The position numbers were made by a program, and so were the translations under genes. This document shows, one piece after another, positions 43,522 to 60,227 of a stretch of 64,000 nt of DNA. Below the pieces are notes generated by a model. It did not search any database. It was not told where the DNA came from and saw only the letters and a list, made by a program, of their open reading frames with translations. The stretch lies in the sequence record NC_070981.1; one strand, 5' to 3'. This DNA comes from Escherichia phage EK010. Within the stretch, counting starts at the first letter, position 1; each line of letters opens with the position of its first letter.

Positions 43522-46521
43522 TTACCTTCGACCGCCAACAGCAAACTCTATAGTGAGTCCATTCATAGATGCATTACTGTTAACATCATTATCTATAACA
43601 TTATAGAATAGGTATGGATGGTTCAATCTTACTGACACATGACGGTCTACCCCAACCCTAAACTCTTTAGTTGAGTGATTATGTCCATACTCATTAGAGA
43701 ATTGACTTCCACCTGCTTCGAACATATAAGTGCCTGTTCCTGTCACTTGTGGTCTAAACCTGTTGATGTGTTTTTGATTCCATTCATTAGTGACATTATC
43801 AAAGTCAATACCAGTCCTCTCTAGCCTCATTTCTAAAGGCCTTTCTATGACTGTATCGTTTGATCTGTCATAAAAATAATCTAAAGCACCAACATCTACT
43901 TGATAGAACCCTCTCAAGAAAGAACCTACTATTGTAACCCTCTGACGGAAGTTTGTTGCATCCTTTCTCCAGACAAGTTTATCAATAGATGGATCATCCC
44001 AAGTGACTTCTTGAAAATCTGCCCAAATAGGACCACGCTCAAGAACAGGAGGATCAACCAAACCAATACAATAAGAGTGTGGAATAGTACGGAAAGACCA
44101 AGTATCAAATTCGTAGTTCCAAACAGCAGCTTTGGTACAAGCGAAACTCTCTTTTGGCTCTCCCGGTCCTACGTATAGAATCCAAACTTCTTTCTTATCT
44201 TGGTGTAGGTGAACTTTAGTAGCTATGGGATTAACTAAACAAATCTCATTGATTAGCATATTCTTAACACGATTGGAAGCAATTGACTTCTTAGATGCCC
44301 CATTATGAAGAATAACATCGTTCTGAGTAACTACAAAATGACCACCCTCTACTTCCACAACACATTCGGGAGCAAGAATTCCTGAATCGTTAAACAACTT
44401 CTTAAACATCAGAGGTTGATATGTGTTATTAGTGGGTGACCCAATGTATGTCTCAAATTCAGTGTAAACAAACAAATAGTCCTTCAGAGGTAACACTTCT
44501 ATAAGACTACCGTTCGAATCTGCAAGATCAATATACCCTGCATACCCATTCTCAAGAGCTTCAGTCTGTCCGACAATATTAGCAGCAAGATCAGAGCTGA
44601 CAGCCCTATCATATGCATAATCATCCCACAGCTCTGGAGCCTTGTTCTCTTCTGCAAAATTAGACCAACGAAGACGCAACGGGTAATGTGTTGTAACGCC
44701 AGAAGCATTAGATTCTCTCATATTCAGAGCAAACAATCTGTTGTTAAATGCACGAATGCGCTCACACTTCCAGTTATACTTCTTAACAGAAGGGTTCCCT
44801 GATGCATCTACTACTGTCTGTTCGCCCCATCCCGGCAAGTCAACAAAGTATTCAGAATCAAACTCTTTAACTTGAGGAGTTTCATAATGGGTGGTTGCAA
44901 CTGCACAGTTAGAGATGATAGTATGATACCACGGGTAATCTTCAAAAGCATCGTAGTCTTTTTGAACCATCTGACTTACAGTGCAGGTAACTTTCACTTC
45001 ACCCTTACGGAGAGCTGTGAGCTTGAGAGTAGGGCTACTAGTGTTGGTAGTAGACACATAACCACTCTTATCTACAGTCCATTTATAGGAATAGTTACCA
45101 GTCGGAGAAGCTGTTGCTGTCAATACAATCTCTTCACCAACATCCAGAGAGGCATCTATAATATCCAAAGTCACGCCACTTAAAGGAGGGTCATTAGCTA
45201 GAAGAGCAGCTCTGCCAAAACCTTCAAGGTCCATTACGTTAGAGTAGTCATAGAAATTGTTACCTTCTGCCATACCTGTTGTATCAATTCCAGTGTTCTC
45301 TGATGCAAAATATACCACATCTTCTTTCTCAATCACAGGCTCTTCTACCGGAGCTTCAGGAGTAATAGAGTAAGACAAAGAACGAGCCATTCTAGAAGCC
45401 AAACCAACTTGAACTTCACAAGTAGCGGTACGTTTACCTTCTACAGTTGTTGCCGTGATTTGAGTATACCCCGCTACTAGGCCAGTAATGGTTGCTTCTG
45501 TACTAGAACCACTAACAGTAGCAATGTTGGGGTTAGAACTTGTCCAAGTGATTGCTTTGTTAGGGGCATTGGCTGGATTAACCGTAGCTGTTAGTATGTA
45601 CTGAGTCCCCCTATTCATTGTTACATTCTCTTGACTTAAAGAGATGCTATCAATCTGAGGAATTGCAGAAACTACACAAGATGCAGTTTTTGTCCCATTA
45701 TCAGCTGTAATGGTTACGTTACCTTCTCCTGAAGCCCTCAACACTGCGGTTAAAGAGTTTGAGTTAGGAGTGACTGACACAATACTTGGATTAGAGCTTG
45801 TCCAAGTGACGCTTGGTTTTCCTGTAATAGCAGTAAGTGTTGAAGTTCCTCCTTTTCTCACTGTCAATGTATCCTGACTTAAGAAGATTCCAGAATCTCC
45901 ATCAATAATGTTAACTGCAATCTGAGTAGAAATGGATTCATCTGCCGTTCGAACTGTAACTACTAAATTACCCTCAACAGCTTTAGAAGTAAGAGTTGCT
46001 CTCTTAGAATCTGTAGGATCAACAACAATACTGCCATAGGCTGAGTTACTTACTGACCAAACTAGGTTAGTATTTTGTGCATCTTCTGGAGTTACACTAA
46101 CTTCCAAAACCTTTGTTTTATTGAAAGTCATAGAAACAGAGGATTCTTTAGGGGTAATAGAAGATACTACCGGATAAATCTTAAGTGTCGCTGTTGCTTT
46201 CTTAGTTGCTGTAGCAACCTTGCGACTGATGTCAGTAAGCCCTTCATCAGTTAATTTGTACAACTTCTTATCTGTACCAACTACAAGGAAACTGTTGCCA
46301 GCGCTATAATAGTCAAAAGGCATAGAGATGAAAGAGAGGGGGGTAAGCTCCTTATCTTCATCAACGTAAGAAAGAGGGGCATTGCCCCCCGTCTTAAAAA
46401 CCCTTTGCTCAACAAAACGAGCATTAATAGCGTTAGTGAAAGCATTTGGTGCTAAGTCAGTAGGTGCTTGGTCAGCGATAACCCCAACTGCCCCTAATGA
46501 TTTTATTGGATATAAAGCCAT
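43522..46521 (-). CDS. large tail protein with bacterial Ig-like (BIG2-type) repeats (999 aa)
   Basis: Repeated 'TWTSSNP.I..V' Ig-like modules; followed by UUCG terminator. Confidence 0.5.
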   Translation of the reverse strand: MALYPIKSLGAVGVIADQAPTDLAPNAFTNAINARFVEQRVFKTGGNAPLSYVDEDKELTPLSFISMPFDYYSAGNSFLVVGTDKKLYKLTDEGLTDISRKVATATKKATATLKIYPVVSSITPKESSVSMTFNKTKVLEVSVTPEDAQNTNLVWSVSNSAYGSIVVDPTDSKRATLTSKAVEGNLVVTVRTADESISTQIAVNIIDGDSGIFLSQDTLTVRKGGTSTLTAITGKPSVTWTSSNPSIVSVTPNSNSLTAVLRASGEGNVTITADNGTKTASCVVSAIPQIDSISLSQENVTMNRGTQYILTATVNPANAPNKAITWTSSNPNIATVSGSSTEATITGLVAGYTQITATTVEGKRTATCEVQVGLASRMARSLSYSITPEAPVEEPVIEKEDVVYFASENTGIDTTGMAEGNNFYDYSNVMDLEGFGRAALLANDPPLSGVTLDIIDASLDVGEEIVLTATASPTGNYSYKWTVDKSGYVSTTNTSSPTLKLTALRKGEVKVTCTVSQMVQKDYDAFEDYPWYHTIISNCAVATTHYETPQVKEFDSEYFVDLPGWGEQTVVDASGNPSVKKYNWKCERIRAFNNRLFALNMRESNASGVTTHYPLRLRWSNFAEENKAPELWDDYAYDRAVSSDLAANIVGQTEALENGYAGYIDLADSNGSLIEVLPLKDYLFVYTEFETYIGSPTNNTYQPLMFKKLFNDSGILAPECVVEVEGGHFVVTQNDVILHNGASKKSIASNRVKNMLINEICLVNPIATKVHLHQDKKEVWILYVGPGEPKESFACTKAAVWNYEFDTWSFRTIPHSYCIGLVDPPVLERGPIWADFQEVTWDDPSIDKLVWRKDATNFRQRVTIVGSFLRGFYQVDVGALDYFYDRSNDTVIERPLEMRLERTGIDFDNVTNEWNQKHINRFRPQVTGTGTYMFEAGGSQFSNEYGHNHSTKEFRVGVDRHVSVRLNHPYLFYNVIDNDVNSNASMNGLTIEFAVGGRR

Positions 46522-46532
46522 TATAGCCCTCC

Positions 46533-47336
46533 TTAGCTAATACGTCTCCAAATGTGTGCTGCTCGGAACGGAGGCAATGTGTTAATAGGTTGGCGAGATG
46601 TATCATCACGACCAAAACTAACAGAACCTGTGATTGTGTGTGAGTGAGTATTAGTGTCAGTCACCTGAGTGTAACCACTACCCGGACTATACCAGTTAGG
46701 GCTGCTGTTATGACCACTTGCATCACCTCGTCCCATTCTGATATTGTGTGAGTGGGAATAAGAACTAACTTGGAAACTAGAACCGTTGATTGTGGTTAGA
46801 GGGATATTATCAGCACGAATCGTATTGAATACGCGACCACCTGTACCACCTGCTTGAAATTCTACACGTTGGGCGTTAGGAACAGACCCATCAGGGTTAA
46901 CAACACCAGTACCCATAATAACACCTGTTACTTTGGCCCAAGAGCCAAAACCAAGAGATGCGGAATCACCCGGATTGATATCTTCTTCAGTGATGTAATA
47001 AGAACCAATACGGTACAACTTATTCTGCATCCAATTCAACATGAAAGCTTCCATCTGACCTTTGGTTACAGCATCTTTGTCTCCAGTTCCCGGAGTAAGA
47101 TTTTTAATCATAAGATTACCAACATCCATAGCATCACCAGTAAAAGTAATCTTCTCTGATAGAGCTTTAAAAGACTCAGAAGAGAGGTCTACCGGCTCTG
47201 TAATATTAGGGAATGTGTTAATCAAAACCTGCTTAATGAGGCGGAGTTGAGCCGCCCCTTCGTAAATGTAATCCCTGTCCCGAGGGTACAGAGGGTTTAA
47301 ATCGGTAGTCACTACCGCAGTTGTTTCGATAGCCAT
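46533..47336 (-). CDS. tail-collar-like fibre protein (267 aa)
   Basis: Gly/Ser/Thr-rich; sits between endolysin and tail protein. Confidence 0.4.
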   Translation of the reverse strand: MAIETTAVVTTDLNPLYPRDRDYIYEGAAQLRLIKQVLINTFPNITEPVDLSSESFKALSEKITFTGDAMDVGNLMIKNLTPGTGDKDAVTKGQMEAFMLNWMQNKLYRIGSYYITEEDINPGDSASLGFGSWAKVTGVIMGTGVVNPDGSVPNAQRVEFQAGGTGGRVFNTIRADNIPLTTINGSSFQVSSYSHSHNIRMGRGDASGHNSSPNWYSPGSGYTQVTDTNTHSHTITGSVSFGRDDTSRQPINTLPPFRAAHIWRRIS

Positions 47337-48161: not shown

Positions 48162-48179
48162 AAGCCCCCGAAGGGGCTT
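48162..48179 (-). terminator. terminator-like hairpin (UUCG tetraloop) after tail fibre 2
   Basis: minus-strand AAGCCCC-UUCG-GGGGCUU then UU. Confidence 0.45.
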
Positions 48180-48182
48180 ATC

Positions 48183-50339
48183 TCACTTCTCTGCTAACTT
48201 CGCTTCTAGAACTTCAATACGCTTCAGCAGATCTTGAACAACCTGCATGGTATCTAAAAGCATTGGAGTTGCATCCAACTCTTTCTGTTCCTGCTCTACC
48301 CCATCGTTGTCATGGAATTTACGAGTTTTAACATAAAGAGGTTCAACTTTCTCTGCCTGCTGTGCAATGATACCACGACGAGTTCTTCCTTGATTATCAT
48401 TGTTGTACACAAACGATTTGAAATCCAAACCTTTTATCGCACGAATTGCTTCATCAGGAGAGATATCTTGGATGTTATGTTTCAACCTTTCATCAGATAC
48501 AGGATTCATAGCAAGAGTATAAGTTCCAGCGGAGCCGGGCTGCCATGTGTAATAGAAAATCTCATTTCTGTTTGGTCGAAGGGTTAAACGACACCCGAAT
48601 TGGTTATTTTCATCACCAGAGACATGCCAACAGGAATCAGCAAAAGATCCAGCATCATTGTGAATCATCCCTACATGGGTAGTAGTTTTGTATCCACCTT
48701 GAGATGCTTGGGAAGCACTCAGTATAGAGTTAAAAGAGTAGTTAGCACCAATCCCTTGGTTATCTATAGAAAACGTCCCTCTGCGAATTCCTGTTTCGTT
48801 CCAAGACATCAATGTTCTAGACCGAGCAGCATACCTATCAGAGTTCAGGGTTCCAGAATCGTCAAAAGCTAATTGCTTGGTAACACCTTTGGTTTTATTA
48901 TAAACACCAATAATCCCATAATAAACTCCGTCGATATAAGCATCAGTTTGGAGCGTAGTAGAAGCCTCTACTTCTGAACCAATTTTATATTCAGCAACAA
49001 CAGAACCACTAGTTACTCGAGTTCCACCAGCAGGACGGTTTGCATCACTATTAATAACTGACCAAGAAGTGTTAGCTGCTACAAAAGCACCTTTAGCTCT
49101 GATAACCCAAACGCCGATGAATGAATTTGTTCTAACCTCAGAAACGTCGTCCTTACCGTAGACCGGACTTGAGCGCGATGCGTCGAGCCTGAATGAGATA
49201 TACCTAGTCCCAGCTTCGGGGGTTGTTAGATTTAGCACCCCTTGAGCAACTGGTGTAGGGAAGTAAACGGCCCCTCCTTGTTGCGCATTGTTGTAGGCAT
49301 AAGATTGCCACTGACCAGTTATATTTGGCGCGGCGGCCTCGTGGATCTTTCTGGTGAAATCTCCTGACCCACGACCATATAGACCCTTTATACTTCCCGG
49401 TTGAACACCATTCTTATCAGGAACTCGGAATGTGGTAGAGCCATCGCCTAGTGAATATTGAGACCTTTTCAGAGGATCTGCCAGCCAATCAGCATCAGAG
49501 ATAGGTGTTATCATTTGCGCGTATGCCCAAAGCTCTGGATAATCTGTACGAGAAAGAAGTTGACCATCTGACGGGATATCATTAGATGGGATATAAGCTC
49601 TACTGTCAATTAAACGGAAATCACCAATGTTGAAATTGGAGATACCATTCATTGTAGGGCCACCAGAACCTCCACCACTGTTACGAAGCTGCCTTAGTGT
49701 AACTGCATCATAGTCACCTACAGCATCTGCTACAGTAACCGGTTGCTGAAAGGTAACTTTCTCGGTAAATTGTTTGATATCAGAGTTGATACCAGTTCGA
49801 GTTACACCAATGGTGCGTCCTTTGGAATCTTTTACATAGGAACCGATTGAAGCGAAAGGTAAATCCTCGATCTCAGGACGATAACGTTTAGAGTAAATAG
49901 GATACTTGGTTTCTATACCACCATCATTCAAATCTACAACCTGAAGACGACCAGCAGAATGCACTTCTACTCCTTGAACAGAAGAGGCATAGCTCCCAAT
50001 CTTAATTGCGTTCTCTGGTGTAACTTTAATCATATCTACAGATTCTACACCATTAGCCCCTTCTGACCGGAAAGGTACATCATTAGCTACAAATGGATCA
50101 GCTTTGAATAAAGCACCTTCCATAACAGGGTCAATAGCATTCGTAACATACTGCTTGGTTGCACCTTCTGTCTTGGTCATATAAGTTGCGCTTGCATCAG
50201 ATTTCTGAAGGTATTTATCTGTCAGGTCAATAGCACCAGCAACACCATCTACAGTAGACACACCCACCACAGCAGCATCACGAGTCACAACTACATGTGG
50301 CATCATAATGCCAGATTTGGGCATTAATTCTCTAGACAT
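48183..50339 (-). CDS. tail fibre protein 2 (718 aa) with collar region and C-terminal chaperone-like domain
   Basis: Shares 'FT.K.TFQQPVT..DAVGDYDAVT.RQL...MNGISNFNIGDFRL' block and C-terminal '...LEAKLA.K' region with fibre 1. Confidence 0.6.
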   Translation of the reverse strand: MSRELMPKSGIMMPHVVVTRDAAVVGVSTVDGVAGAIDLTDKYLQKSDASATYMTKTEGATKQYVTNAIDPVMEGALFKADPFVANDVPFRSEGANGVESVDMIKVTPENAIKIGSYASSVQGVEVHSAGRLQVVDLNDGGIETKYPIYSKRYRPEIEDLPFASIGSYVKDSKGRTIGVTRTGINSDIKQFTEKVTFQQPVTVADAVGDYDAVTLRQLRNSGGGSGGPTMNGISNFNIGDFRLIDSRAYIPSNDIPSDGQLLSRTDYPELWAYAQMITPISDADWLADPLKRSQYSLGDGSTTFRVPDKNGVQPGSIKGLYGRGSGDFTRKIHEAAAPNITGQWQSYAYNNAQQGGAVYFPTPVAQGVLNLTTPEAGTRYISFRLDASRSSPVYGKDDVSEVRTNSFIGVWVIRAKGAFVAANTSWSVINSDANRPAGGTRVTSGSVVAEYKIGSEVEASTTLQTDAYIDGVYYGIIGVYNKTKGVTKQLAFDDSGTLNSDRYAARSRTLMSWNETGIRRGTFSIDNQGIGANYSFNSILSASQASQGGYKTTTHVGMIHNDAGSFADSCWHVSGDENNQFGCRLTLRPNRNEIFYYTWQPGSAGTYTLAMNPVSDERLKHNIQDISPDEAIRAIKGLDFKSFVYNNDNQGRTRRGIIAQQAEKVEPLYVKTRKFHDNDGVEQEQKELDATPMLLDTMQVVQDLLKRIEVLEAKLAEK

Positions 50340-50356
50340 ATTTAATTCTCCTTAAA

Positions 50357-50372
50357 GCTCCCCGAAGGGAGC
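50357..50372 (-). terminator. hairpin (UUCG tetraloop) between the two tail fibre genes
   Basis: minus-strand GCUCCC-UUCG-GGGAGC followed by UUU and the AAGGAG RBS of fibre 2. Confidence 0.4.
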
Positions 50373-50381
50373 ATTGTTAGT

Positions 50382-53300
50382 TTATTTAGCAGCCAACTTA
50401 GCTTCTAACTCTTCCACTTTCTCAGACAAGCACTTAATTGCTGCAAGAGCATCAAGTAAAAGAGGGTTAGTGTCGAGAGTCATAACTCCACTTTTTTCCG
50501 CACTATGAACATACTGAGGGTCAACCTGTTCTGCCTGTTGTGCAATAACCCCTCGACGTGGAGATTTCTTCTCATCACTCTTATATGTAAAGTTCTTAAA
50601 CTCAAGAGCTTTAATATTACTTAGAGCGACATTTAAATCCAAATCATCACCAATATCTTTAACATTCGCGTCAGAGGTTCCAGCATTCTGAAGAGTTGTC
50701 CACGGAAGGTTGGTTTTGAGTTCTTTTGGATTATTGTTTATGGTGTTAGTTCTAACATAAGCCGAACCATTCAAGCTTATCCAAAACTGGCAGATTCTGT
50801 TTACGGCATAAGAAGTTTGGAAACCTCCCCCATTTGCAGCTGCCCACGGCGAATTACCATCCGAGTCTGTTATGAACTGGTTATAGTTAGAATCAGGTAA
50901 CACTGTACCACCCTGAACACCAACACCATAATCATCTTTAACTAAAACACGACCTTTGGGAGTCTCTATATTCCCCGCTTCAGTGAAATCAAAAGTTGTA
51001 CCTTTCGAAGAAGTTTTGTTATAAACTCCAATTCTTGCAGAGTATGAACCACCAACAGTGCCTTGCATTTTGAACTCAGCTGACCCTTCTGGTTCTGTGC
51101 CAACCCTATAATCGGATACCAAGTTGCCACCTGTAATGGTTGTACCGTCCGACGGTCTTATGTCATCACTATTAATAACAGACCAAGAAGTATTAGCTGC
51201 AATGAAAGCACCCTTAGCACGAATTACCCATACGCCTATGAAGTTGTTAGGTCTCAGTTCTGATACAGTCCTGCCATAAATAGGGTTGGATTTAGATGCA
51301 TCAAAATCAATATTTACATAAGACCCATTTATGGCATTTGTTCCGCCGATAGGAGTTAAAGTGGTAGTCTGTGGTGAGAAGGAACCCCTACCACGAACAG
51401 ATCCACCAGAACCCCAACCAGACAGCATAGTGACCTCGGGTGTTCCTGTTATATTAGGAGCTCCTGATGAAAAAACAGCTCCATCATTACCGCTGTTACC
51501 GCTATCACCTCTCCCGAATAACCCTGCTATGGAATTAGCCTGAACCCCGTTTCGGTCAGGGACACGGAAAGTTGTAGAACCGTCACCCAAAGAATATTTA
51601 CCTCTTTTTTCCGGAGAAGCTAACCAATCGTCATCACTGATTGGGGTTAATAGCTGGGCGTAAGCCCAAAGCTCTGGATAATCAGCACGGGTAAGGAGTT
51701 GACCATCTGATGTTATATCACTTGAGTGGATAAAAGCACGACTGTCTACTAGTCGGAAGTCGCCAATATTGAAGTTGGAGATACCATTCATTGTAGCCCC
51801 ACCACCGCCACCACCTTGGTTTTTCAACTGACGATAGGTAACAGCATCATAATCACCAACAGCATCAGGAATAGTAACCGGTTGCTGGAAAGTAGCTTTC
51901 TGTGTAAACGTTTTAAGATCAGAGTTTACACCGTCAGTAGTTACAGCAGCAGCACCTATCGCAGCAGGTGTTGGCTTATTGTTCTCTGCATAGAACAAAT
52001 AGTCCCCAGAGGGTGTTGACAGATAAGGTACACTAGAACTAGCAATAACTGTACGGGCTAAGTGATCACCAAACACAGATGAATCTGAACCACTTCTAGA
52101 AACCATGTTGACTTGACTGCTGTCATCTTTAATACGTCTTAAAGAGATTCCATTGTTCAGAACCAAGTTACCATCCATGATACCACCAGCTTTGGCAATA
52201 GCTCCAATTGTTGCAGGGGTGAGATTTACATTACCAGTGTTGTCATTAGGGGATAACCCATTAACTGTTACAATATAAGGCTTCTGAGCTTGCACTTGGC
52301 CTTTGTATTCAGTATCTGTAGCCGAGTTAGGAGATCGAATTGTTTCACCACCAGTCCAGTCTGGGAGTCGGATGTTAACATAGTTAGTAGAATCTGCATC
52401 AGTAATACCGTCAGCTTGCTTACCCCAAGAGAAGTATTGCTTAGCACCTGCTTGCCATTCTGTTTCACTGACAACAGGGAGCTGACCACTGAGTAAAGAT
52501 GGACCCAAATCTGCTGCCGATTCTTTAGAAACAAGACGACCATCAGCAGGAAGAATCCCGGGATATGAAATATTCTTAGCTGGGTCATAGGGGAACATTA
52601 CCATTTCACCAAGATACAGAGAAGGGTTTCCTGTAGGAATGGTGATATCAATGTTACCAGTGGAGTCTGGGATTCTAGAGTTAACAGTAACAACGCGAGG
52701 TTCTGTTTTCAAAGGCTCTAAGATTTTATCAGAAGCCACGGTGTAGAATGAATACTTAGTATCTTCCCAAACTAGAATTGTCTCACCAGCCTTTCGGTTA
52801 ATCGCATCAGCATCAGCATCAGCTTTAGTATTATAGGCTTTGATGAACCTGTCAACTTTCTTGTCGGTTTCTTCTTTACTGTAAGAAGCTACGTTTTCTA
52901 CGTTATCTAGACCTACCGTGCTTTTGTCAATGGTTAAAGAGACGCTACCACTTTCAGCAGGTCCACCATTAACACTGATATCCCTAACAGATGGGATTAG
53001 GTTTGCGATGTTTTCCAAAGTGGTTTTATGGACTGTATTATCAGTTTGGTCTACGTAAAAACCCAAATCCCCAGCAACAGGAACACCAGTATCAACAGTG
53101 TTTAAGTCTTTAACCGATCCATCTTTACCCGGAAGACCCTCAGGAATACCAAGGCTGATCTTACCAGTGGTAGGGTCAAACTCACCAGTAGCAGGCTGTC
53201 CCGGACTTAAAGTTGTTACCTCAACAGTCATCCCTAACAAGATATCCAGCTGTTTGTCAACCTCTACCAGTTTTTGATTAATTAGTGCAATAGCGTTATT

Positions 53301-53603
53301 AGCATTAGCAACGGCAGCATTAGACTGAGCAATAAGTTGCATCAAACGAGCGTCTTGATCTTTGAAGTCTTGCTTAAGAGCTTCAATATCCTCACGTAAC
53401 AGAATCCCTTGTTGATAAAGTTTTTCCACTTCTGCAATCAGATCATCAACCGTACCAAATTTAGCCTCTGCCAATAGTGACCAATATTTAGCATCAGCAG
53501 CATATTCAGCTGCTTGCTTATAGGCTCCAATAGAGCCTTCTGTTGCACCAAACTGACCAACGTTGTTAGGATTAGTTGGCTCTTGGTTGTTATAAACGAT
53601 CAT
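50382..53603 (-). CDS. tail fibre protein 1 (1073 aa) with collar region and C-terminal chaperone-like domain
   Basis: Same conserved blocks; divergent central region. Confidence 0.6.
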   Translation of the reverse strand: MIVYNNQEPTNPNNVGQFGATEGSIGAYKQAAEYAADAKYWSLLAEAKFGTVDDLIAEVEKLYQQGILLREDIEALKQDFKDQDARLMQLIAQSNAAVANANNAIALINQKLVEVDKQLDILLGMTVEVTTLSPGQPATGEFDPTTGKISLGIPEGLPGKDGSVKDLNTVDTGVPVAGDLGFYVDQTDNTVHKTTLENIANLIPSVRDISVNGGPAESGSVSLTIDKSTVGLDNVENVASYSKEETDKKVDRFIKAYNTKADADADAINRKAGETILVWEDTKYSFYTVASDKILEPLKTEPRVVTVNSRIPDSTGNIDITIPTGNPSLYLGEMVMFPYDPAKNISYPGILPADGRLVSKESAADLGPSLLSGQLPVVSETEWQAGAKQYFSWGKQADGITDADSTNYVNIRLPDWTGGETIRSPNSATDTEYKGQVQAQKPYIVTVNGLSPNDNTGNVNLTPATIGAIAKAGGIMDGNLVLNNGISLRRIKDDSSQVNMVSRSGSDSSVFGDHLARTVIASSSVPYLSTPSGDYLFYAENNKPTPAAIGAAAVTTDGVNSDLKTFTQKATFQQPVTIPDAVGDYDAVTYRQLKNQGGGGGGATMNGISNFNIGDFRLVDSRAFIHSSDITSDGQLLTRADYPELWAYAQLLTPISDDDWLASPEKRGKYSLGDGSTTFRVPDRNGVQANSIAGLFGRGDSGNSGNDGAVFSSGAPNITGTPEVTMLSGWGSGGSVRGRGSFSPQTTTLTPIGGTNAINGSYVNIDFDASKSNPIYGRTVSELRPNNFIGVWVIRAKGAFIAANTSWSVINSDDIRPSDGTTITGGNLVSDYRVGTEPEGSAEFKMQGTVGGSYSARIGVYNKTSSKGTTFDFTEAGNIETPKGRVLVKDDYGVGVQGGTVLPDSNYNQFITDSDGNSPWAAANGGGFQTSYAVNRICQFWISLNGSAYVRTNTINNNPKELKTNLPWTTLQNAGTSDANVKDIGDDLDLNVALSNIKALEFKNFTYKSDEKKSPRRGVIAQQAEQVDPQYVHSAEKSGVMTLDTNPLLLDALAAIKCLSEKVEELEAKLAAK

Positions 53604-53612
53604 AATCTCTCC

Positions 53613-54359
53613 TTAACTGTAATGTTTAATTCCGTATAATTCACGAGAGCTGTGAAGACGGTCGATAGTTCGAGGGATAACTAGAGGAGAACCTGAATAC
53701 TCAGCTTTCTTACTCTGTTCAACTACTTCATCTAAGATGGCTTTCCCTAAAGCCGACCACTTCTGAACCCCATTATCATCTTGAACAAACAAGCTTGCAT
53801 GACGTAATGTGAAATATAGAAGAAGCTCTGGAGCTATTGTTAAAATTGCACTTGTATCAGAATCCTCATGAAACTCCGGAGGGTCTGCATAATAGCTAAG
53901 AATTACCGAATTCTCCGCTGGAATAAGAGGGCTTCCATCATCAGGGTAGACCGGAGTATCGGCGTTGATGGCTGGGTAGAACAGGAACCGACTTCCCAAC
54001 CTAGTAAAACTCACTTCTCCCTGATTCCAGTTAGTTGGGTTTACTGAGTTATTTCTTTTCAGCCAATCTAACTCTTCTGGAGAAGTTACTCGGAACATAT
54101 GTCCATTACTTGCTCTCATCATCCACTGAGCTTCTAAGTAGTCTGGTGGAATAAAAGCCACACCATCTTTAATATCTAAATATACTTCTTTTTCCAGAGG
54201 AGGAATTCGTAAGTTACGATAGATTTCTTTCTCTGCAAAGTTAATAAAGTTTGGAATCTGATTAACAAATTCATCATCATCCCTGTCAGCCCAGAGGGAC
54301 ACAGCTTTCTTGAGCCATCCGTAGGTATTGATGGGATATTGAACGTCAGGCATTGCCAT
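53613..54359 (-). CDS. virion protein (248 aa; candidate head-tail connector/adaptor)
   Basis: Position between capsid module and fibres; TAATGTATT motif 33 nt upstream. Confidence 0.4.
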   Translation of the reverse strand: MAMPDVQYPINTYGWLKKAVSLWADRDDDEFVNQIPNFINFAEKEIYRNLRIPPLEKEVYLDIKDGVAFIPPDYLEAQWMMRASNGHMFRVTSPEELDWLKRNNSVNPTNWNQGEVSFTRLGSRFLFYPAINADTPVYPDDGSPLIPAENSVILSYYADPPEFHEDSDTSAILTIAPELLLYFTLRHASLFVQDDNGVQKWSALGKAILDEVVEQSKKAEYSGSPLVIPRTIDRLHSSRELYGIKHYS

Positions 54360-54459: not shown

Positions 54460-55578
54460 TTAAGCACCAGATTTAACGGTGTAGGTTTTGAACACTGTAG
54501 AACCTGGGTCAGTTCTCAGGGTTACTTTAGTATCTTCACTAGTGATAGCACCAGAGAGCGTAATTGTTAAAGCATCACCAGAAATGGTAATACTCAATTT
54601 GTCTGCATCTGTGCCTTCTACATCATATACGATAGTTCCTAGTGGAGCACCTTGAGGAACAGAAGCTATGTTAAAAACTCCTGGTTGGCTTGGGTCTGAG
54701 ATTGTCAAAGTATCACCAGCTACTGACCCATCAGACACTGCTGAAACAACTAAACCAGTAAGTTTAGGTATTACGTCTTCTATGGTAGAAGTTGCAGTTA
54801 CTGAAGTCTGGGTTTTATGAGTAGCCTTAACAGTTACATTGTCATTCGCTGTATCTGACAAGGTTAACAAGCCAGAGGTAGCATTAACAGAACCGGCAGC
54901 AGTTGGAGTTACTACGAAATTATAGTTAGTAGCAGCTGAGCGTTGAACAGTAAACATATCTGTAAAAGCGACACTGTCTCCACCAGATTTTCCAGTAATA
55001 GCAGCTTTAGCCGCGATAGTTGGAGGCTGAGGGTTGACAACAACGTTAATCACTTTAGTGACAGAAGGTTTAGTAGAAGATTTAACTGTAAGAGTAGTAC
55101 TACCTGCTGCAACAGCAGTTACACGACCAGCAGTTGTTACCGTAGCCTTAGTCGGATCTGCAATTTCCCAAGTAACACCTTGAGGTGCACCAGCAGGAGA
55201 TACAGAAGCAGTTAGATTGGTAGCATCTGGAACAGTTATGGTAAGAGTATCACCAGTTAGACCACCACCAGTTACAGCAATGGAAGCTGGGTCAGGGATT
55301 GGAGCTTTAATTTCCGAGATAACGGCAGTACCTGATACATCTTTAAGAGTAGCAGTCACTGTAATATCAGCGGTTTGAGGCGAACCTGGAGCAGTGAACA
55401 GTCCAGAAACAGAAATGGCCCCACCACCGGCTACTGACCAATCGAAGCCTGTAGTAGATGTGGAGCCATCGCTTAGTTCTGCTTCAGCTGTAAACTGTTG
55501 GGTAGCCCCGGTCAGCAGACTAGCCATTGACGCGGGACTAACAGTTACGCTGTCAACTGTTACGCCTCCACCTTTCCC
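54460..55578 (-). CDS. Ig-like-domain C-terminal extension of the major capsid protein, reached by -1 frameshift
   Basis: Open frame is -1 relative to MCP and begins inside the MCP 3' end; slippery G-GGA-AAG at 55578-55572; Ig-like repeats downstream. Confidence 0.5.
   Translation of the reverse strand, partial: GKGGGVTVDSVTVSPASMASLLTGATQQFTAEAELSDGSTSTTGFDWSVAGGGAISVSGLFTAPGSPQTADITVTATLKDVSGTAVISEIKAPIPDPASIAVTGGGLTGDTLTITVPDATNLTASVSPAGAPQGVTWEIADPTKATVTTAGRVTAVAAGSTTLTVKSSTKPSVTKVINVVVNPQPPTIAAKAAITGKSGGDSVAFTDMFTVQRSAATNYNFVVTPTAAGSVNATSGLLTLSDTANDNVTVKATHKTQTSVTATSTIEDVIPKLTGLVVSAVSDGSVAGDTLTISDPSQPGVFNIASVPQGAPLGTIVYDVEGTDADKLSITISGDALTITLSGAITSEDTKVTLRTDPGSTVFKTYTVKSGA
55539..55578 (-). 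other. programmed -1 ribosomal frameshift cassette: slippery heptamer G-GGA-AAG, 9-nt spacer, 8-bp hairpin
   Basis: Heptamer at 55578-55572 in MCP frame (Ala-Gly-Lys codons 346-348); stem TAACAGTT/AACTGTTA at 55562-55555 and 55546-55539. Confidence 0.5.
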
Positions 55579-56615
55579 GCAGCGGTGAACAATACACCAG
55601 AAGCATATGGGTTGCGGTGACGCAGACCAACTTCCATTTCGATCATCCATTTCTCGTAAGAACCATCTTTCGCCAGTTCAGTACGTTTCGGAGCACGAAG
55701 AACCATCTGAGTCCAGTCAGAGCTGCGGAAGAAGTAAACTGCATCAGCAGGCATCCAACGGTTAACGATGATTTTATAGCTCTGACCCAGCGGGTCAGTG
55801 ATGCTGTTAACTTCATAGATGAACTGTTTGGTGTTCTCAAAGATACGCTGACGAGAACCAACAGAGTTTTCCTGAAGCTTAGCAAAGATGCTAGCGTGAG
55901 CAGGGTTAATCATGATGATGTCTGCTTCAGAACCGGCGGTATACAGTTGCAGAGTCATATCAAAGATATCAGCTTCATCAAAACCGATGTTCGTAGTCGG
56001 GTTAGAAGCATTCTGTGCAACTTTAACAGTTACTGCACCAGTATCTGGGTCAGCAGGACCATCTTCTTTCTTAACAACACCACTAGCAACACCGTTGTGT
56101 GCACACAGGAACTGGAAAGCACCAGTCTTACGAGCAGCTGAGGTGTCATTCTGACCTACAACAGCAGGATCAGTTGCAGAGTTGGTCAGATACTGGTCTG
56201 CCAGAATATCGGTACGAGCCTGACCGGACAGCAAGATTTTCTCGAGGTCACGTTTAATCTCTTTACCTTTCTTCTCCAGCTGATACATCAGTTCACGACC
56301 ACGACCGTAGTTAGCGGTGGTGTTAGCAGTATCAGAAACACGAACAACTTTACGCAGGATCTGAGTAACGTTGGACTTGATTACAGTCGGTTTCATTTCG
56401 CCGTCTTCAGCACGAGAGCCTTCGACGTGGGCGTTGTTAGCATCTACGCTCGCCAGAGCATCGGTCTGCCAGCTGAAAATAGTCTGATTGATAGACTCTT
56501 TACCAGTCATAGACACAAACGGAGTGTCTTGCGGAGACAGGACAGAAATCCAGTTAGCAAAAGAAAGTTTTTTACCATTCTGGTCGTAAGATACAAATAA
56601 AGTTGGATTTGCCAT
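55560..56615 (-). CDS. major capsid protein
   Basis: 351 aa ORF directly downstream of scaffold gene, portal-scaffold-capsid order; frameshift into Ig-like extension. Confidence 0.6.
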   Translation of the reverse strand: MANPTLFVSYDQNGKKLSFANWISVLSPQDTPFVSMTGKESINQTIFSWQTDALASVDANNAHVEGSRAEDGEMKPTVIKSNVTQILRKVVRVSDTANTTANYGRGRELMYQLEKKGKEIKRDLEKILLSGQARTDILADQYLTNSATDPAVVGQNDTSAARKTGAFQFLCAHNGVASGVVKKEDGPADPDTGAVTVKVAQNASNPTTNIGFDEADIFDMTLQLYTAGSEADIIMINPAHASIFAKLQENSVGSRQRIFENTKQFIYEVNSITDPLGQSYKIIVNRWMPADAVYFFRSSDWTQMVLRAPKRTELAKDGSYEKWMIEMEVGLRHRNPYASGVLFTAAGKVEA

Positions 56616-57983: not shown

Positions 57984-60227
57984 TTATTTTCTACTACCAA
58001 GACGACGGTTAGGAATCCGTGAATCTTTGATTGAACTTTGCTGTTCTTTCTTAGTTTCATTTGCTTCTTTCTTTTGGAGTTCCAAAGTCTTATCTTGAAT
58101 TTTAGCCTGATTTGCAACTTTCTCAACATCGACCTGATGATTAAGAGTCATCTGCAACTCTTTAAGTACAGATTCATATTGACGGACCTGTTGCTGGAGC
58201 AGAGCCAACTTATGCTTGGCTTGTTCAAGTGTAGCACTGTTATCTTCTTTACGGTTCTCCAAAGTCATCTGATCAGCAGCATTCTCTTGCTTAAATTGCA
58301 GTTCTTCTTGACGTAAGCTGAACTCATCCGCAGCTTTCTGCTGTTCAAACGTAGTACGTTCACGCTGGTCGAATGCATCAGCAATCATCTTCTGAGAAGA
58401 AGCCTGTACGTTCTCAACCTGTGCTTTAGTCATCTCAAGCTGGAGGATTTCCATCGGAGTTGGCTCAGGAGGTTGATACTGTTCCAGAGGCATTAAGTAT
58501 TTGTGGGTGTCTTTAATTCCCATCAACTCGAAGATCTGTGCAGTCATATAACGATCTTGCTCCAGAGTAAACAGAGGTGCTAACTGAGCATCAGCAGCAA
58601 TCAATTGCTTCAGGCTGATTAGTTTCTGGGCACGTTCTGATTTCTCACTAGGAGAGATAGCTACAACAACTTGTAGATTATGACGAGCAGGTAGTTGTTT
58701 AGGATGAACCTGAACCATACCACGAGGGGTTTGTACTTGTAAAGGAACCTCACCATTTTCTCGGACTAAATTATAAATACCACGCATCAATTCAACCATA
58801 CCGTTGTGAGCAATATTACGACAGACCATACGGAGACGGTTCTGAGCAGCATTCATCATCAATCCAACAGTTGCATACGCGTTATCGTTCTTAAACACAT
58901 CAGGGTTAATGCCCATACCAAGTTTAGTAACACCAGTACGAGTTTCTTTCAACTCATCAGACATTCCCAGCAAGCCATCGATACCTTGAGGTAGATTGTG
59001 GTAAGGGAAGAGATCAATCGCATCCAGACGCTCCATTTCTACTACACCACCCGGACGGTTGTCTAGTAGGGAACGACGGTCATAAGCACCTACAAGAGCC
59101 TTATAACGACCATAGTTAGCATTGTTTACGTTATCAATATAACCACGAACCAAAGCGGTACGCAAATCCTGAATATCCTTGGTAATGTCGTAAACAGATT
59201 GTCCGTAGAATGAACCCGGAATAGGATAAGGGCAGAATGTTACAAAAGGAATGCTAGTTACTTCTTCACAAGAGAGAATATGCTCGCCTGCTTGAATAAC
59301 TTGGTAGAGTTTTGACTCTTTGTTCTTATCGAGCGTACCAGTACGAATGTAATGCTCGTAAACCCATACCATACTTGCGATATCTTCAGTGTCAACACCA
59401 ATATCAGCATCTGTATCCTGTCTCCAGTCAGTGCGTGACCATGCAACAGTAGATTGAGTGGTGTCCATTGTATCAGTCCAGTCATTAAAAGCTTCAATTT
59501 CATCTTTAGGGAAGCCCATAGCAACCAGATCTTCTTTAGATTTACGTGTGCGATGACAGAAATACTGAGCATCTGCAAAAGAGGTAGCATGTTCGTCAAC
59601 AAAAATTTGTTCTGAAGGAACATATTCTACTTTAACACGTTTTACTGTTTGTTTGTAAGTTACTTTAACATCCACTGTACCATCTTCATTGTCAGTGGTA
59701 AAAATTTCTAAATCTTGAAGCCCACCAGCTTCTAAACCTTGGACATATGCAGCCAAAGCTTCCGGAGGAACACCCTCTGCTTCTTCTGTTTGAGTAGAAG
59801 TTTGTTCATCCCAATAGTATTTAATAAAAGAGTTACGTGTAACCAGACACTCTTGTGCCGCTGAAGAGATAATATTGTATCCCGGATTATCACGTAACAA
59901 AATTTGGTTGACAAGCTTAGTGGCTACGTCAGCAGCATCACTATCTTCTTGGTTATCGGCTACGAAAGTTACCGCTTCGTCACCAGAACAGAACACGTTA
60001 ATGATATCTTGGAGTGTACCATTCACTGATTCCCATACTGTACGGTCTACCCAACTAGAACTACCAGCAGTAACTGGAGCAGGAAGGTTCCCATAGAAGT
60101 ATTCCCAAGCCTCACGAGCATAGCCTTTTACAGCTAAGTCTACATAGCCTTGAGCATAATTGAATCGACGTTGAAGGTCAACGCGTAATTCATCCAAAAC
60201 ATCTTCACTAAATTTCTTCTTAGCCAT
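57984..60227 (-). CDS. portal protein
   Basis: 747 aa ORF immediately downstream of large terminase; GGGAGAG RBS. Confidence 0.55.
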   Translation of the reverse strand: MAKKKFSEDVLDELRVDLQRRFNYAQGYVDLAVKGYAREAWEYFYGNLPAPVTAGSSSWVDRTVWESVNGTLQDIINVFCSGDEAVTFVADNQEDSDAADVATKLVNQILLRDNPGYNIISSAAQECLVTRNSFIKYYWDEQTSTQTEEAEGVPPEALAAYVQGLEAGGLQDLEIFTTDNEDGTVDVKVTYKQTVKRVKVEYVPSEQIFVDEHATSFADAQYFCHRTRKSKEDLVAMGFPKDEIEAFNDWTDTMDTTQSTVAWSRTDWRQDTDADIGVDTEDIASMVWVYEHYIRTGTLDKNKESKLYQVIQAGEHILSCEEVTSIPFVTFCPYPIPGSFYGQSVYDITKDIQDLRTALVRGYIDNVNNANYGRYKALVGAYDRRSLLDNRPGGVVEMERLDAIDLFPYHNLPQGIDGLLGMSDELKETRTGVTKLGMGINPDVFKNDNAYATVGLMMNAAQNRLRMVCRNIAHNGMVELMRGIYNLVRENGEVPLQVQTPRGMVQVHPKQLPARHNLQVVVAISPSEKSERAQKLISLKQLIAADAQLAPLFTLEQDRYMTAQIFELMGIKDTHKYLMPLEQYQPPEPTPMEILQLEMTKAQVENVQASSQKMIADAFDQRERTTFEQQKAADEFSLRQEELQFKQENAADQMTLENRKEDNSATLEQAKHKLALLQQQVRQYESVLKELQMTLNHQVDVEKVANQAKIQDKTLELQKKEANETKKEQQSSIKDSRIPNRRLGSRK

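Follow-up and report, generated by a model that had tools for sequence, protein, structure and literature searches.

Two adjacent tail fibre genes of Escherichia phage EK010 probably encode anchor and branch subunits of a single fibre

Two tail fibre genes lie side by side at positions 48183-53603 of the 64,000-nucleotide stretch of Escherichia phage EK010 (NC_070981.1) that we refer to as the window. They are open reading frame (ORF) 13 (50382-53603; 1073 amino acids, aa) and ORF14 (48183-50339; 718 aa), both on the minus strand, like all protein features located below, and separated by 42 nucleotides (nt). The phage is a podovirus of the phiEco32/SU10 type, and the two products are likely to be the subunits that together make up one branched long tail fibre, with ORF13 as the proximal (anchor) protein, ending in a module like that of LtfA of phage DT57C, and ORF14 as the distal (branch) protein. 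The whole 5.4-kb fibre stretch is 100% identical to that of Escherichia phage E20-1 (OP293233; Gordonclarkvirinae, Kuravirus). Here we describe the homologies, motifs and domain borders of the two proteins, the co-occurrence of a putative docking pair across phages and the breakpoints of exchanged cassettes, and we use characterised homologues to propose how the fibre would branch, cleave itself and bind glycans, and in what order. A sequence-only reading of this DNA had seen a dual receptor-binding apparatus in the two genes. Homology to LtfA/LtfB and to gp13 of phage EP335 does point to multiple receptor-binding elements, but they would most likely be distributed over an anchor and a branch that belong to the same fibre, and the idea of two separate fibres is probably wrong in detail.

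An anchor protein and a branch protein

Judged by its sequence, ORF13 is the orthologue of SU10 gp12, at the position of phiEco32 gp14, with its C-terminus replaced by a DT57C LtfA-like module. Using phmmer, we matched aa 1-473 to PDB chain 7z47_D (SU10 gp12, 'putative tail fiber'; E 2e-237), and over aa 1-468 the identity to SU10 gp12 is 76%. From aa 208 to 1071 the protein matches residues 195-1070 of the 1076-aa chain 8hqz_d (DT57C L-shaped tail fibre assembly protein; E 8e-148), which was taken to be LtfA from its chain length and the parallel match to DT571/2 LtfA. The putative adaptor-binding N-terminus and coiled-coil stalk occupy aa 1-200 (53004..53603), of which aa 1-120 are 78-88% identical to SU10 gp12, a protein whose residues 1-90 have been built by cryo-electron microscopy (cryo-EM), bound to the adaptor (Siborova et al. 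2022, PMC9509320). Thus ORF13 combines a gp12-like N-terminus and stalk with a gene position directly downstream of the adaptor gene. The N-terminal domain by which T5-type LtfA binds the LtfC collar was not found in ORF13, the first 240 aa being 5-25% identical to LtfA. As its anchor is of the SU10 type, ORF13 would work like LtfA without being a member of the T5-family Ltf proteins.

ORF14 appears to be the orthologue of SU10 gp13, EP335 gp13, phiEco32 gp15 and the T5-like LtfB. With SU10 gp13 it shares 57% identity from end to end (aa 1-718), from a conserved N-terminal region of ~180 aa to the C-terminal intramolecular chaperone (IMC), and with DT571/2 LtfB 36%, again over the full length (E 3e-118). 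The identity to LtfB rises to 72% over aa 1-40, a segment that is 95-100% identical in kuravirus orthologues, and across 52 aligned homologues aa 1-310 are densely set with invariant columns.

Genetic work on DT57C and DT571/2 has shown that their lateral fibres are branched, with LtfA on the tail and LtfB attached via LtfA; LtfA sets O22-like versus O87 specificity, LtfB recognises O81, and LtfB attachment depends on LtfA whatever LtfA's own receptor activity (PMC4728585). The same study proposed LtfA residues 223-471 and phiEco32 gp14 residues 239-508 as the contact for LtfB and gp15, respectively, and reported that the N-termini of LtfB and gp15 are identical at 32 of 45 residues (Golomidova 2016, PMC4728585). 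The branched phiEco32 gp14/gp15 fibre goes back to a cryo-EM personal communication cited there, and attachment in DT57C was inferred from genetics. The branched-fibre proposal has been extended to the kuravirus EP335 (Witte et al. 2021, PMC8217332).

The same arrangement can be recognised in EK010, that is, an anchor with a conserved mid-region and, in the adjacent gene, a branch protein with the conserved N-terminus of ~45 aa. The mid-region of ORF13 (aa 208-473, 52185..52982) is kept in both SU10 gp12 and LtfA and would be the branch point at which ORF14 docks. Within the whole of ORF13, invariant columns are densest here, at aa 323-457 (alignment A2, 44 homologues). The attachment peptide would be ORF14 aa 1-56 (50172..50339; MSRELMPKSGIMMPHVVVTRDAAVVGVSTVDGVAGAIDLTDKYLQ). 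Because the branched model predicts that peptide and docking region are inherited together, we searched phage records for ORF14 aa 1-56 and for ORF13 aa 320-460, a knob within the mid-region, and found them in 233 and 243 records, respectively. The counts are almost the same taxon by taxon (peptide versus knob: Escherichia 110 versus 111, Salmonella 91 versus 95, Shigella 5 versus 5, among others), and the two elements are ~2 kb apart in every record listed for both. Two groups make up these records, podoviruses of the Gordonclarkvirinae and siphoviruses of the T5-like kind, a pattern that fits a docking pair moving together between otherwise unrelated tails.

Each protein might instead be attached to the tail on its own. 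Both ORFs are complete and fibre-like, each with a distal module and a chaperone, and many phages carry independent fibre sets. We nevertheless regard two independent fibre sets as very unlikely. No similarity links the N-terminus of ORF14 to that of ORF13, which would bind the adaptor, and the ORF14 peptide always accompanies an ORF13-type knob, even in T5-like siphoviruses with unrelated tails. Moreover, in cryo-EM of SU10 no fibre protein other than gp12 is seen on the adaptor, and none other than gp16 on the nozzle (PMC9509320), and LtfB function needs LtfA regardless of LtfA receptor activity (PMC4728585).

The knob itself (52224-52646) is near-invariant and resembles a collar domain in degenerate form, at about aa 330-430. 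It lacks the DGSTTFRxPD signature in kuraviruses, ORF13 reading ...YVNIRLPDWTG..., and its collar-like nature is deduced solely by way of LtfA, whose equivalent residues 385-400 still match the phage tail collar domain and whose residues 344-399 are similar to ORF14 aa 254-309 (E 5e-6). A candidate internal similarity between the knob and the first putative receptor-binding domain (RBD1) of ORF13 was not significant (BLASTP E 2.4). The knob may be a former receptor-binding domain reused as a docking platform for the branch protein.

A module common to both proteins

Downstream of their N-termini, which are unrelated in BLASTP, the two proteins resemble each other over a long stretch: aa 179-718 of ORF14 and aa 554-1073 of ORF13 are 47% identical (E 2e-132). 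Such similarity greatly exceeds what chance would give and bears out the ~120-aa common block and the differing N-termini of the sequence-only reading, which had proposed a domain alignment as a check. The first conserved block comprises ORF13 aa 565-688 (51540..51911; FTQKATFQQPVT ... LGDGSTTFRVPDRNGVQ) and ORF14 aa 190-313 (49401..49772). These are 79% identical, with 95 of 120 residues matching over ORF14 aa 190-309 in a windowed alignment. A second block comprises ORF13 aa 773-832 (51108..51287; FIGVWVIRAKGAFIAANTSWSVINSD...) and ORF14 aa 392-451 (48987..49166), with 63-73% identity. The chaperone-like C-terminal domain that had been noted in both proteins, and that is moderately conserved between them, is there as well, but the similarity is wider and takes in the whole C-terminal ~540 aa, block 2 included. 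Likewise, the central divergence described earlier is real but falls into two regions, not one. The first separates the two blocks (ORF13 aa 689-772, 51288..51539; ORF14 aa 314-391, 49167..49400; 30-37% identity) and forms the hypervariable insert of the putative RBD1. The second (ORF13 aa 833-977, 50673..51107; ORF14 aa 452-615, 48495..48986; 13-37% identity) is the distal tip, a putative T5-like RBD2 that ends at the predicted cleavage serine of each protein.

At the DNA level the blocks are less alike, with only 72% identity over 300 nt in block 1 (direct repeat D1) and 78% in block 2 (direct repeat D2), which indicates that the paralogy is old and kept up by selection and that the genes were not duplicated recently. 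A recent tandem duplication within the genome, or ongoing gene conversion, might be suspected from the adjacency of the genes, the 124-aa block at 79% identity and the common C-terminal ...LEAKLA.K tail. Given 72-78% DNA identity in the best blocks, and modules that are each nearer to those of other phages than to their neighbour, we rejected this explanation, which we find scarcely credible. ORF13 aa 801-1073 are 95-100% identical to RBP1 of phage PAS59 and 88-100% identical to gp14 of phage LAMP, the ORF14 IMC is 70-89% identical to that of SU10 gp13, and the same paralogy links LtfA and LtfB in T5-like phages.

The module belongs to a known family. In tblastn, ORF14 aa 179-718 matched the tail fibre gene of phage IrisVonRoten (Bas32) with 52.7% identity and a query coverage of 95% (aa 205-717; E 3e-167) and Bas90 at 46.6% over 100% of the query; Bas87-type fibres match too. 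The homology of ORF14 to the family of T-shaped fibres with two receptor-binding domains is therefore established at the level of sequence. A profile search of the PDB with alignment A1 recovered LtfA and several IMCs and did not find T4 gp12, T4 gp37 or T5 pb1. Structure prediction, which the earlier reading had also proposed, was of use for the IMC alone: the AlphaFold2 monomer of ORF14, made from a 52-sequence alignment, has a mean pLDDT of 52.6, with aa 1-255 below 50, and neither supports nor refutes gp12-like and T5-like folds.

Among anchor proteins, the form seen here is uncommon. Past aa ~473, ORF13 continues with a linker and a full LtfA-like module with IMC, and a Pfam scan found no PF25670 (Phage_tail_C_2) in it, with PF13884 in its place. 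In contrast, SU10 gp12 has 786 aa and ends in PF25670 (E 1.3e-60) without an IMC. Taking the lengths and Pfam labels of protein clusters as a proxy for prevalence, the long IMC-bearing form is a minority, making up about 33 of the top 120 clusters of homologues; most others carry PF25670 and vary in length, and proteins of ~850-900 aa that have an IMC represent a third form. The long form includes PAS59 RBP1 (91% identity to ORF13), LAMP gp14 (78%) and SDYTW1-F1-2-2_3, and only four records are clearly full-length (these three and E20-1). The coverage of tblastn matches is unreliable as a count of long-form phages, as the tool joins pieces from both genes.

Predicted self-cleaving chaperones

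Both proteins end in an IMC of the Peptidase_S74 family (PF13884, 'chaperone of endosialidase'), at ORF13 aa 978-1073 (50385..50672; 39.4 bits, E 7.4e-10) and ORF14 aa 616-718 (48186..48494; 52.4 bits), with a cut-off of 22 bits, and both are assigned the IMC fold. In each protein we found the Ser-x5-Lys dyad in the form S-D-x3-K, as V-S615-DERL-K620 in ORF14 and T-S977-DANV-K982 in ORF13, with the spacing seen at Ser621|Asp622 of EP335 gp13. EP335 gp13 is cut after the homologous conserved serine, as determined by mass spectrometry (PMC8217332). By analogy, the IMCs of ORF13 and ORF14 are predicted to be removed by autoproteolysis after folding, which would give a mature ORF13 of 103.8 kDa plus an IMC of 10.5 kDa, and a mature ORF14 of 66.3 kDa.

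In T5 pb1, endosialidase and EP335 gp13 the IMC comes after a receptor-binding or catalytic part. As ORF13 has an IMC of its own with an intact Ser-Lys dyad, its C-terminal end would be expected to be a free tip and not a joint.

Exchange of binding cassettes

Comparison with PAS59 shows where the two genes have been altered. By blastn, the DNA is 93.6-94.5% identical over 49314-51287 and 51541-53603, while nothing could be aligned in 51288-51540 (ORF13 aa ~689-772) or, block 2 apart, in 48183-49313 (ORF14 aa ~343-718). In ORF13, aa 721-760 are 22% identical to PAS59 RBP1 and 12% identical to LAMP gp14, whereas the sequence on either side of the insert is 95-100% identical to PAS59 RBP1 and that downstream of it 88-100% identical to LAMP gp14; the distal tip, aa 833-977, is 92-100% identical in both. 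Thus an insert of ~250 bp differs entirely between EK010 and both relatives within flanking DNA that is ~94% identical in PAS59 and ~74-86% identical in LAMP. Since aa 689-772, an insert of ~85 aa, are all that sets ORF13 apart from PAS59 RBP1, RBD1 would appear to be exchangeable without RBD2. This insert is an unusually small unit of exchange, at the level of a sub-domain.

In ORF14, aa 1-320 are 95-100% identical to the PAS59 orthologue, and identity falls to 28-52% at aa 321-400 in comparison to the PAS59, SU10 and LAMP orthologues. Megablast matches to several relatives start at query positions 1219-1225 (window 49401-49407), the border of block 1; the more sensitive blastn extends the similarity to PAS59 to 49314. 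Block 2 is the only segment 3' of this breakpoint with a match to PAS59, LAMP and SU10 DNA, at 49043-49127. The position of breakpoints at the borders of conserved blocks suggests that the conserved scaffolds act as recombination joints.

Hypervariability of this kind, together with the analogy to characterised fibres, supports the variable regions as the receptor-binding parts. The Gordonclarkvirinae of the BASEL collection rely on the O16 O-antigen and bear the same T-shaped module (PMC11990801), and the PAS59 host is O146:H21.

These data also bear on whether the fibre is branched at all. ORF14 could join ORF13 end to end in a serial, unbranched fibre, in which the ORF13 module would be a spacer or joint and ORF14 the sole receptor binder. 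Several published findings agree with this and weigh against our interpretation. The SU10 fibre, of 700 Å with one elbow, consists of gp12 and gp13 trimers described as its proximal and distal halves, with no explicit branch and with the distal parts unresolved (PMC9509320), the YF01 annotation speaks of 'proximal/distal long tail fiber', and a GFP-gp12 fusion of EP335 bound no strain tested (PMC8217332), although that protein probably has a different C-terminus, of the PF25670 type. To these we add that the Pfam Collar match in ORF13 block 1 stays below threshold (20.8 bits; cut-off 24). Even so, we consider a serial fibre improbable. Besides the IMC of ORF13 with its intact dyad, the LtfA-conserved region proposed as the LtfB contact corresponds to the middle of ORF13 (aa ~208-473) and not to its C-terminus. 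Furthermore, ORF13 aa 689-772 are hypervariable between phages ~94% identical in the flanking DNA, a signature of receptor-type regions, and in DT57C/DT571/2 it is the homologous module of LtfA that decides between O22-like and O87 specificity (PMC4728585).

Genomic context

The late operon is of the SU10 type, with genes for portal, major capsid protein (a match to Pfam SU10_MCP), immunoglobulin (Ig)-like protein, adaptor, ORF13, ORF14, holin, lysozyme, short tail fibre and nozzle, and from the adaptor through both fibre genes, holin, lysin and short fibre to the nozzle the order matches SU10. The adaptor, on which ORF13 would dock, is encoded at 53613..54359 (-) and is the SU10 gp11 orthologue (PF24175 SU10_adaptor, E 2.2e-29; 81% identity). 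The short tail fibre at 46533..47336 (-), a third and conserved fibre, is the SU10 gp16 orthologue (Pfam Gp10_C, E 2.5e-10; 84% identity), and the nozzle protein, expected to carry the short fibres, is a 999-aa ORF with Big_2 repeats at 43522..46521 (-), syntenic with SU10 gp17. All late structural genes examined (43.5-60 kb) are on the minus strand, and the GC skew, positive over 1-32 kb and negative over 32-64 kb, switches sign near 32 kb.

ORF13 and ORF14 are 100% identical to UYE89917.1 and UYE89918.1 of E20-1, respectively, and ORF14 likewise to an EK010 protein. Both genes are labelled 'tail fiber' in the E20-1 record, and E20-1 was included in a survey of kuravirus-like genomes (PMC9965538). 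PHROGs assigns both proteins over their full length to existing tail-fibre families (ORF13 to phrog_10305, ORF14 to phrog_6921, E 1e-248). The deposited annotation of the neighbouring E20-1 genes looks wrong or uninformative: a 747-aa 'terminase large subunit' (57984-60227, -) is the portal (Pfam SU10_portal, E 6e-170), a 999-aa 'tail fiber' (43522-46521, -) sits at the SU10 nozzle position, and the 'hypothetical protein' 5' of ORF13 (53613-54359, -) is the adaptor.

The major capsid gene (55560-56615, -) contains a classic -1 slippery heptamer, G GGA AAG, at 55572-55578, and ends 10 nt later. An open -1 frame extends from 55650 to 54460 and encodes the Ig-like (Big_2) protein, whose sequence GenBank lists as a separate hypothetical protein. 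The related phage YF01 is reported to make two capsid isoforms via ribosomal slippage (PMC9965538), and by analogy the heptamer and the open frame fit the same mechanism. The Ig-like protein (54460-55527, -) has 355 aa, the SU10 gp10 counterpart takes up only 399 nt and PAS59 has two ORFs of ~170 aa, which indicates that the size of this head-decoration or extension domain varies among close relatives.

No more than ~10 nt past its stop codon, each fibre gene has a short G+C hairpin, closed by a UUCG tetraloop and trailed by a few U residues, GCUCCC-UUCG-GGGAGC after ORF13 (50357-50372) and AAGCCCC-UUCG-GGGGCUU after ORF14 (48162-48179). They may be weak terminators or mRNA-stabilising stem-loops. 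A scan of the locus for promoters and terminators found no excess of promoter-like sites (6 versus 13 expected) and only short hairpins after each gene. ARAGORN found no tRNA in the window; for the complete E20-1 genome, one is given in the survey of kuravirus-like genomes.

Discussion

Taking these data together with what is established for homologues, we propose the following working of the fibre. A trimer of ORF13 would anchor on the adaptor ring by its SU10 gp12-like N-terminus, with six fibres per virion expected as in SU10. A trimer of ORF14 would be held off the virion core, its conserved N-terminus of ~45-56 aa docking on the mid-region of ORF13 (aa ~208-473). Past this branch point each subunit would consist of the same kind of distal module, of ~420 aa, in which a conserved scaffold of two blocks frames two variable regions, the first a T4-gp12/collar-like domain with a hypervariable insert and the second a T5-pb1-like tip. 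The IMC of ~100 aa would drive trimer folding and then cut itself off after S977 in ORF13 and S615 in ORF14. The variable regions are likely to act as non-enzymatic binders of a glycan, most likely the O-antigen, and would touch the cell first, in a reversible manner, before the conserved short fibres and the nozzle rearrange for DNA delivery, as shown in SU10. Finally, the conserved blocks could double as recombination sites through which binding cassettes are exchanged between phages.

On this proposal the word 'dual' in the sequence-only reading holds insofar as both proteins would bind receptors but undercounts the elements, as the literature gives two receptor-binding domains per module (PMC11990801) and the short fibre at 46533-47336 is a third fibre. 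The design itself is already known, branched fibre, T-shaped module and self-cleaving chaperone having been described in DT57C, phiEco32, EP335, SU10 and the BASEL phages. What may be mildly new is the doubling of the T-shaped module and the map of sub-domain cassettes. It is possible, if doubtful, that both subunits are T-shaped in the sub-lineage of E20-1, PAS59 and LAMP, as well as in some 30 metagenomic protein clusters, with four distinct glycan-binding domains on each of the six fibres. If all four were functional, no non-enzymatic adhesin described on a podovirus would be more multivalent, and the fibre, if this is true, would provide a natural and minimal host-range cassette for engineering. 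The map of scaffold and cassettes (variable regions at 51288-51539, 49167-49400 and 48495-48986) could guide the engineering of host range in kuraviruses, which are attractive for therapy because they resist restriction-modification systems. More generally, in a subset of kuraviruses the 'proximal' protein would seem to carry a second binding module, resembling that of LtfA, which the proximal/distal naming hides.

Among characterised systems, SU10 shares subfamily, gene order and the context of adaptor, short fibre and nozzle with EK010; in SU10, gp12 and gp13 are, respectively, the proximal and the distal protein of the long tail fibre and the short fibres, gp16, sit on the nozzle, gp17 (PMC9509320). 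The differences lie in the variable regions, where SU10 gp13 and ORF14 are only 15-48% identical, and in the anchor, since SU10 gp12 ends in PF25670 and has no IMC, whereas ORF13 ends in the LtfA-like module with an IMC. In the latter respect EK010 is closer to DT57C and DT571/2, where LtfA and LtfB form an anchor and a branch, each with a paralogous module and an IMC, and where LtfB aligns with ORF14 over the full length, N-terminal peptide included. The anchor itself differs, as the LtfA N-terminus binds the LtfC collar of a T5-type siphovirus while that of ORF13 would bind a podovirus adaptor. The variable regions of DT57C and E20-1 are unrelated in sequence, so that receptors cannot be transferred by homology.

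The kuravirus pairs EP335 gp12/gp13 and phiEco32 gp14/gp15 are orthologous to ORF13/ORF14 and have been proposed to form a dual branched fibre (PMC8217332). EP335 gp13 binds O157 and O26 strains and contains a central T4 gp12-like segment found by HHpred, Phe236-Ala422 (PMC8217332), which corresponds to ORF14 aa ~230-420. Unlike ORF13, with its LtfA-like ending, the proximal protein of EP335 probably belongs to the PF25670 type that most homologues represent, as judged by its relatives EcoN5, KBNP1711 and phiEco32.

The closest description of the module itself is the T-shaped fibre, in which a Gp12-like RBD1, a T5-pb1-like RBD2 and an IMC follow in one chain on a proximal fibre (Humolli et al. 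2025, PMC11990801). Such fibres occur in Gordonclarkvirinae, some T5-like phages and Wifcevirus, with Gp10 of AnnaHegner (Bas87), Gp24 of IrisVonRoten (Bas32) and the Wifcevirus Gp114 as BASEL members, and have been linked to O-antigen-dependent infection (PMC11990801). For the kuraviruses of BASEL, a T shape has been ascribed to the distal protein alone, whereas in E20-1, PAS59 and LAMP the proximal protein holds a second copy of the module. The PAS59 genes (OQ921332) are already labelled receptor-binding proteins 1 and 2 (RBP1/RBP2; Pas et al. 2024, PMC11522302); two cassettes, aa 689-772 in ORF13 and aa ~343-718 in ORF14, are unrelated to their PAS59 counterparts.

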